Source: a virus
Length of the DNA: 14,261 nt
UHGV virus genome: UHGV-0247634
Strand: one strand, 5' to 3'
The notes below the pieces were generated by a model. That model was not told the origin of the DNA and did no database searches. It worked only from the letters and a program-made list of their open reading frames with translations. Below, in pieces: positions 861 to 1,330 of the stretch (positions are counted from its first letter, which is position 1; each line of letters opens with the position of its first letter). The position numbers and the translations under genes are program-made.

Positions 861-892
861 TCGCCTGATAATTGTTTTACTAAGGAGAAATG

Positions 893-1081
893 ATGGAATC
901 GCCAATTATGAAATATTTCAATTATGAGCATCTTCCGACTTCGTTAAAGGAAGTGAGTAAGCCAATTGGTGATCTGGCAAGAGTAATGGATGAATCTTTG
1001 CCAGACGGTCCGGAAAAGTCGGCTGGGTTACGTAAATTGCTTGAAGCAAAAGATGCTCTGGTGCGAGCGAAACTGGGTTAA
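893..1081 (+). CDS. hypothetical small soluble protein (moron candidate)
   Basis: 62-aa ORF (MESPIMKYFNYEHLP...) with SD AGGAG at 883-887 and ATG 893. About 43% GC by hand count, visibly lower than flanking late genes. No TM segment; C-terminal amphipathic helix-like stretch (LRKLLEAKDALVRAKLG). Followed by a strong hairpin. No family recognised. Confidence 0.45.
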   Translation: MESPIMKYFNYEHLPTSLKEVSKPIGDLARVMDESLPDGPEKSAGLRKLLEAKDALVRAKLG

Positions 1082-1090
1082 GGCATTACA

Positions 1091-1114
1091 GCAGCCCTTC
1101 AGCCGAGGGGCTGC
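1091..1114. terminator. stem-loop between convergent genes, candidate bidirectional terminator
   Basis: gcagcccttc (1091-1100) pairs with gaggggctgc (1105-1114), a 10-bp stem with one G-U pair and loop agcc. It sits between the stop of the + strand ORF (1081) and the stop of the - strand ORF (1124). No clean U-tract on either side, so termination efficiency is uncertain. Confidence 0.4.
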
Positions 1115-1123
1115 AATAATGCT

Positions 1124-1330
1124 TTAGTTGTCTTTCATAAATCCTTTAATGACCCATCCCACAAGCCTGGTGATGCTGTACACAAACAAGGCAATTATCA
1201 GAGATACAAGGATATCAAACAGTGAGAATCCTTGCGTATCCGTTGTTGAAAATAAAAGACTAAAGATGAACACCAGAATGGCCAACAGAATACCTACCCG
1301 GTGAAAGCCTTTAGAAATCATGTTTTTCAT
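1124..1330 (-). CDS. hypothetical small membrane protein, two predicted TM helices (antisense moron)
   Basis: 68-aa ORF (MKNMISKGFHRVGILLAILVFIFSLLF...DILVSLIIALFVYSITRLVGWVI...) with two hydrophobic helices and a basic C-terminus. SD GGAGGA is 4 nt upstream of the ATG on the - strand. About 38% GC by hand count. It is the only convincing gene on the - strand, in the position where lambda carries the antisense bor moron. Confidence 0.55.
   Translation of the reverse strand: MKNMISKGFHRVGILLAILVFIFSLLFSTTDTQGFSLFDILVSLIIALFVYSITRLVGWVIKGFMKDN

Follow-up and report, generated by a model that had tools for sequence, protein, structure and literature searches.

The 62-aa open reading frame (ORF) at positions 893–1081 of the window (the whole 14,261-nt stretch of UHGV virus genome UHGV-0247634 analysed here) belongs to a family that we assign, from sequence comparison and structure modelling, to a divergent branch of the Acb2/Tad1-hairpin sponge superfamily, forming a distinct and so far unannotated clade. 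By analogy with characterised Acb2 proteins, we consider it probable that the protein is an oligomeric anti-defence sponge for a nucleotide immune signal, carried as late-expressed accessory cargo. The relationship to Acb2 is based on the convergence of profile–profile alignment, BLASTP, sub-threshold matches to PF24729, a shared PHROG family, structural neighbours in BFVD and domain fusions. Sponge proteins are a main phage route past signalling immunity (CBASS, Thoeris, Pycsar), and the assignment offers a name and a testable function for a family left ‘hypothetical’ by every annotation library. It also corrects a tempting mis-assignment of the protein as a lysis accessory.

A conserved gene in a cargo slot

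The window is part of an Escherichia coli prophage related to phage phiP27, and near-identical DNA is present in a handful of E. coli chromosomes. The features of the region are as follows.

5–280: holin with three transmembrane (TM) segments
277–663: M15 endolysin
678–860: 60-aa lipoprotein, lipobox Cys31; phrog_7528, ‘unknown function’
861–1390, no strand: low-GC island (37–47%) in the composition profile, holding the ORF and a convergent 68-aa ORF
882–887, plus strand: Shine-Dalgarno sequence AAGGAG, 5 nt before ATG 893, read from the sequence
890–1081, plus strand: ORF of 63 codons from ATG 890, as given in the ORF list
893–1081, plus strand: 62-aa ORF and stop codon; divergent Acb2/Tad1-hairpin-type protein, putative nucleotide-signal sponge
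890 and 908, plus strand: alternative in-frame ATGs of the ORF list, giving 63 aa and 57 aa (the PGAP call), respectively
1078–1127, plus strand: extended stem-loop, starting inside the ORF stop codon and followed by UUGUCUUU
1124–1330, minus strand: convergent 68-aa membrane ORF with a two-TM look, 38% GC
1392–1742: HNH endonuclease, followed by the genes for the small and large terminase subunits

A preliminary description of this DNA had placed a 62-aa ORF at 890–1081, of about 43% GC by hand count, between a lysis lipoprotein gene and a strong hairpin, with no TM segment in its product and no convincing promoter of its own. All of this holds on closer analysis: the ORF is present (62 aa from ATG 893, 63 from ATG 890), its computed GC content is 42.9%, the upstream gene encodes a lipobox, and the downstream hairpin has a folding energy of −31.3 kcal/mol. 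The ORF’s GC content compares with 54% in the lipoprotein gene, 55% in the endolysin gene and 57% in the HNH gene, and with a range of 52–57% across the flanking genes. The low-GC island that lies between the lysis genes and the HNH and terminase genes is a cargo (‘moron’) slot; in phiP27 and in E. coli W the same slot is occupied by other genes.

The most likely true start, as read from the sequence, is ATG 893, because the spacing from the ribosome-binding site is appropriate, the residues S-P-I-M are conserved at the upstream end, and relatives have a length of about 62 aa. The TAAGGAG-N5-ATG spacing recurs in an allele from a Mu-like prophage (L011) that has a single ATG, and members of the family, which are almost all 62 aa long, keep S-P-I-M upstream of the start called by PGAP. 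RefSeq/PGAP takes the third ATG as the start (908; 3309–3482 in L001), giving a 57-aa ‘hypothetical protein’, an annotation in which a start-codon error is likely put right here.

The preliminary description had let its claim depend on conservation of the reading frame in related phages, and the frame is conserved: dN/dS for the ORF is 0.13–0.16 against alleles at 87–88% nucleotide identity, and a copy in an Acinetobacter phage encodes a protein 76% identical to the window protein even though synonymous sites are saturated. The ORF is therefore a real gene under purifying selection.

The convergent 68-aa ORF ends at the same hairpin, is a hypothetical protein in RefSeq and has neither a Pfam nor a PHROG family; it could be a second moron of the same low-GC island.

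Relationship to Acb2 and the Tad1 hairpin

We compared the family alignment (A1) by hhalign with an alignment of 36 diverse Acb2 homologs taken from Table S2 of Hadary et al. 2025 (bioRxiv 10.1101/2025.08.24.671296), which gave a match of 93.1% probability (E = 3.1e-7) spanning 43 columns, residues 17–59, and both helices. With either alignment reversed, or in 30 column shuffles, the score was at most 12, as against 35 for the real alignments. The significant match emerged only with the diverse Acb2 alignment; against T4 Vs.4 (Acb2) alone, or against its close T4-like relatives, hhalign aligned only the C-terminal motif and the match was not significant.

Single-sequence comparison points the same way, with BLASTP aligning the window protein to Acb2 homolog #4 at 38% identity over 56 aa (31 bits), the N-terminal F-x-Y included. 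Homolog #4 inhibits the CBASS system of E. albertii (Hadary et al. 2025, Table S2, 10.1101/2025.08.24.671296). Aligned over its full length, the window protein is collinear with Acb2 apart from a four-residue deletion in helix 1. A profile HMM of the family matches homologs #17, #4, #34, #11, #20 and #27 at about 13–23 bits, and reaches 20–23 bits on four tested homologs (#17, #4, #34 and #11). According to the same table (10.1101/2025.08.24.671296, Table S2), #20 and #34 also inhibit E. albertii CBASS, #11 inhibits both E. albertii CBASS and type I Thoeris, and #17 is without activity.

Two family libraries connect the proteins further. PF24729 (Acb2_Tad1_hairpin), the Pfam family of T4 Vs.4, is matched below threshold and collinearly by 8 of 35 family members, at 13.7–18.5 bits, with neither these relatives nor the window protein reaching the gathering score of 27 bits; and phrog_1454 is matched in the same register by both T4 Vs.4 and the ORF family. 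PF13876, which had been considered as the Acb2 family, was dropped, as it corresponds to Acb4 (PMC12265669).

Like Acb2 (anti-CBASS 2) of Pseudomonas phage PaMx33 and T4 Vs.4, the window protein is a small phage protein with an N-terminal F/x/Y aromatic element and two long antiparallel helices, and it shares with Acb2 the motif ‘...LA..[IM]DE.LPDG.EK....KL.EA’; both Acb2 and the ORF family are, moreover, accessory genes in many unrelated phages. The two differ in length (62 aa in the window protein, which carries the shortened helix 1, against 88 aa in T4 Vs.4), in a segment where the window clade has ‘KDC/A-x-VRA’ in place of the ‘MWA-x-KA’ of Acb2, and in conservation, the window clade being internally much more conserved than Acb2. 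With Tad1 (Thoeris anti-defence 1) the shared element would be the PF24729 hairpin domain, which the ORF family resembles below threshold; judging from how PF24729 is named and delimited, Tad1 is a larger protein that has the hairpin as one of its domains, whereas the window protein consists of little beyond the hairpin. No ORF-family member was found among 40 Acb2 homologs of Table S2 of Hadary et al. 2025, and the family's sequence motif did not occur in the papers searched or in the supplements of that study.

Structure prediction agrees with the alignments. AlphaFold2, run on an alignment of 35 sequences, predicts with high confidence (pLDDT 97) a short helix at residues 4–9 followed by a helical hairpin (16–35 and 40–61), of which the second helix bears out the helix-like C-terminal region noticed earlier from the sequence. 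The predicted fold thus has the N-terminal element and two long antiparallel helices of an Acb2 protomer, whose published core is formed by two long antiparallel helices (10.1101/2025.08.24.671296). A search of BFVD with the model returned the ORF family itself as the first six matches, after which nearly all named matches, at least 17 of the top 50, are to an ‘Acb2/Tad1 hairpin domain-containing protein’. Fold searches of the PDB were not discriminating because helical hairpins are ubiquitous: Foldseek found nothing in the PDB at an E-value below 1. Run against PDB sequences, phmmer and the family profile gave only chance matches and de novo coiled-coil designs, the latter of compositional origin, with no Acb2 entry among them. 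Homology and structure prediction, the checks proposed in the preliminary description, thus yield both a profile match to Acb2 homologs and a hairpin fold.

Fusions to known sponge domains

A survey of 150 family representatives for additional domains found that the most frequently fused domain is Sequestin (PF21825), which is joined to the ORF-family domain in three proteins (P0232, P0266 and P0248). Sequestin, a verified anti-Thoeris sponge, owes its own discovery to the frequent fusion of sponges with each other (PMC12265669), and its fusion to the ORF family follows the manner in which known sponges join each other. Sequestin, which is related to crAss001_48, is likewise a short all-helical phage protein of about 60 aa; it is a fusion partner from a different family, and Pfam gives no PF21825 match in the window protein. 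In one further representative (P0137) the ORF-family domain is joined to a PF24729 hairpin that scores above the gathering threshold.

Two matched stretches, representing tandem duplications, are present in 8 of the 150 representatives, a hint that protomers pair. Proteins with fused or tandem architecture are P0232, P0266, P0248, P0137, P0122, P0124, P0131, P0178, P0185, P0189 and P0204. The survey also returned rare fusions to non-sponge domains, with FtsK_gamma found twice, a helix-turn-helix domain (HTH_3), a Com zinc ribbon and RMF once each, and WDGH as well; these may be run-on gene calls.

Size, spread and genomic contexts of the family

The ORF family is among the most widespread and best conserved of small phage proteins. 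A word-indexed search returned 3,424 homologs, the best 120 of which are 81–98% identical, those with a named source coming from Escherichia, Klebsiella, Citrobacter, Enterobacter, Xenorhabdus, Providencia, Pectobacterium and others, and an exhaustive search of representatives at 50% identity recovered 4,207 clusters at E-values up to 0.001. By tblastn the family is present in 346 of 50,697 phage genomes, infecting both Gram-negative and Gram-positive hosts; the carriers include Vibrio, Erwinia and Dickeya jumbo phages, phages of Acinetobacter, Mycobacterium, Gordonia and Brevibacterium, N4-like roseophages and T4-like phages. A Pfam search with the window protein gave zero matches even at E-values up to 10, and the PHROG families it matches, 1761 (E = 1e-32) and 5120, are both of ‘unknown function’. 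That the family was not recognised at first reading is fair, given that no library names it.

Across these phages the gene sits at variable accessory positions: among small right-arm genes in mycobacteriophage BigNuz; beside topoisomerase and rnlB in the T4-like phage ZZ1; within the early region of an N4-like roseophage; between head-morphogenesis and capsid genes in a Mu-like Acinetobacter Vieuvirus; between capsid and tail-tube genes in a Xanthobacter prophage; and, in Mu-like E. coli prophages, once more between lysis and terminase genes. Features labelled ‘repeated sequence in phage genome’ overlap the family member at about 24518–24754 in the Brevibacterium phages AGM16, AGM6, 1T, 4T and related records, and the length over which the family member matches differs between isolates (186 versus 237 nt).

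Plasmid carriage is rare. The family occurs in 26 plasmid records, 22 of them non-mobilizable and only 2 conjugative, and we rejected the idea that it is a feature of conjugative plasmids. In size these records, among them NZ_CP145667.1 and NZ_CP104341.1, extend from 19 kb up to the megabase scale; several resemble phage-plasmids or circular phage genomes by their size, and Acinetobacter, Citrobacter, Moellerella and the cyanobacterium Leptolyngbya are among the hosts.

Conserved residues and proposed mechanism

Residues F9, H13, L14, L18, S22, A29, E41, R47, K48, L49, L50, E51, K53, D54, V57 and R58 are nearly invariant in the family, and position 11, which aligns with Y11 of PaMx33 Acb2, is aromatic in 93% of members. 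Acb2 is a hexamer in which the N-terminal regions of two protomers hold a cyclic dinucleotide between them (PMC10312549; 10.1101/2025.08.24.671296), with stacking on Y11 and a salt bridge to K26; cyclic trinucleotides go to a second pocket, through R67 and T74 (PMC10312549). Three of these four PaMx33 contact residues have a different counterpart in the alignment with the ORF family: the conserved S22, next to K/R23, for K26; P40 for R67; and the invariant R47 for T74. At codon 55 (1055–1057) the window has Ala, as do the enterobacterial alleles compared here; the family has Cys at this position in 84% of representatives (‘KDC’) and Ala in about 13%.

On the model of characterised Acb2, the soluble 62-aa protein would most likely assemble into a homo-oligomer, with pockets to which the N-terminal segment contributes F9, Y11 and H13, and the hairpin its basic residues K23, R47, K48, K53 and R58. 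Such a pocket would bind and sequester a nucleotide second messenger of a CBASS-, Thoeris- or Pycsar-type host defence, whose effector would then never be activated, so that the phage could complete its cycle. Oligomerisation, ligand binding and anti-defence activity are all transferred here from Acb2. An anti-defence moron was one of two functions suggested in the preliminary description, and the homology to Acb2 together with the fusions to known sponge domains speaks for it, as do the predicted fold and the distribution of the family. Because the pocket residues differ from those of Acb2, the ligand is not predictable; the altered residues also make the protein a good candidate for a new ligand specificity. 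A more specific form of the sponge proposal, which we put forward tentatively, is that the family is a compact, ultra-conserved lineage whose remodelled pocket (S22/K23, P40, R47 and KDC) takes an immune signal that canonical Acb2 does not, or several signals at once. On that reading the family, which reaches from phages of E. coli to those of Mycobacterium, would be among the most widespread anti-defence proteins still uncharacterised.

The same changes at ligand-contact positions could instead mean that an Acb2-like fold has been turned to another job, its hairpin oligomer binding either a non-immune metabolite or some conserved protein of the host or the phage, in host takeover or regulation. 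Identity within the clade is 60–80% across phyla, far above that of typical sponge families, and conservation this high among phages of different phyla might stem from some other constraint, for instance a protein partner that is itself conserved; some members are, in addition, fused to the non-sponge domains listed above. Each of those fusions is rare and may reflect gene-call run-on, however, whereas the commonest fused domain is Sequestin and another partner is the Acb2 hairpin itself. Most of the closest tested relatives inhibit CBASS or Thoeris, and the aromatic residue on which the base stacks is retained. We therefore regard a non-immune function as unlikely, though worth keeping in view, and favour sequestration of an immune signal. 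If sequestration is confirmed, annotation of prophages and of phages for therapy could flag such genes as anti-defence cargo.

The 3′ hairpin and expression of the gene

Compared with shuffled sequences, the stem-loop at the 3′ end of the ORF is much more stable (z = −6.6). Across its equivalents at 8 loci, pairing survives compensatory double changes in 9 of 16 stem pairs and the outer stem, CATTA/TAATG, is invariant, but the T-rich tract downstream is not conserved. The hairpin may not be a plain intrinsic terminator; it might stop transcripts that escape antitermination or else protect the 3′ end. The equivalents lie in different prophage backgrounds, for example at about 3185–3235 in L019–L024 and at about 2980–3030 in L003. 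In several other E. coli prophages, a breakpoint of mosaic homology falls at about position 1121 of the window, just past the hairpin. Because the hairpin is kept with the ORF elsewhere and homology breaks at this point, the ORF and its 3′ hairpin appear to move as one cassette, and a covarying, co-travelling hairpin would then be part of a mobile unit.

Co-transcription of the ORF with the late lysis genes is plausible from the sequence, because the gap between the lipoprotein gene and the ORF is 30 nt, the ribosome-binding site is good, and a consensus scan of the plus strand over positions 1–2000 found no sigma-70-like site. The gene would accordingly be accessory cargo placed last in the lysis operon, probably expressed as part of late transcription and moving with its hairpin.

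The hairpin and the low-GC island would also suit a moron that benefits the lysogen, for example through superinfection exclusion or a stress function, and that is transcribed on its own during lysogeny: the conserved hairpin would halt a polymerase that is not antiterminated, and in a Klebsiella allele a terminator-like site lies upstream of the ORF. The plus strand of the window has no promoter-like site upstream of the gene, however, and strictly lytic phages (T4-like, N4-like and jumbo) commonly carry the family, although such a function would be senseless there. We judge a lysogen-benefit role very improbable, and retain that of a late-expressed sponge.

A stem-loop followed by TTTTTT at 727–752, within the region encoding the lipoprotein signal peptide, resembles a terminator; it is probably there by chance, because the number of such sites matches the expectation from shuffled sequence.

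Position next to the lysis genes

The preliminary description had also offered a role in lysis, such as disruptin-like disruption of the outer membrane, in view of the incomplete set of spanins nearby. The position of the gene lends this some appeal, as in enterobacterial prophages it directly follows the lysis cassette, and no i-spanin partner for the lipoprotein was recognised in the window. Apart from following the endolysin gene in enterobacterial prophages, however, the gene shares nothing with disruptin or the spanins (Rz, Rz1, u-spanin): the window protein has net charge 0 (10 K+R versus 10 D+E) and a pI of 6.6, its sequence holds no TM segment, hydrophobic segment or lipobox, and it is without cationic amphipathic character.

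Comparison of the locus across related prophages, also suggested at the outset, shows that the ORF is dispensable to the cassette. Among 5,426 complete E. coli genomes, the ORF is present in 12 and the surrounding endolysin–lipoprotein region in 320; the lipoprotein gene recurs in phiP27 and in E. coli W, neither of which carries the ORF. A close allele in Klebsiella and Enterobacter prophages sits behind lysis cassettes of four different kinds, and Rz-type spanins (DUF2570, Phage_lysis) are already encoded in several of them. Because other phages carry the gene in contexts unrelated to lysis, the junction between lysis and packaging genes is simply a cargo slot used in enterobacterial prophages. 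The family also has members in Brevibacterium, Gordonia and Mycobacterium phages, and in T4-like, N4-like and Mu-like phages its genes lie in early or structural regions; we dismiss as scarcely credible the proposal that the protein is a disruptin-like accessory or a spanin substitute completing the set; charge, distribution and context all speak against it.

The lipoprotein upstream has conserved C48 and C57 in addition to Cys31. Its mature part, about 30 aa long, contains zero proline, unlike a typical proline-rich Rz1, and in Mu-like E. coli prophages the lipoprotein recurs at 58% identity after a different endolysin.
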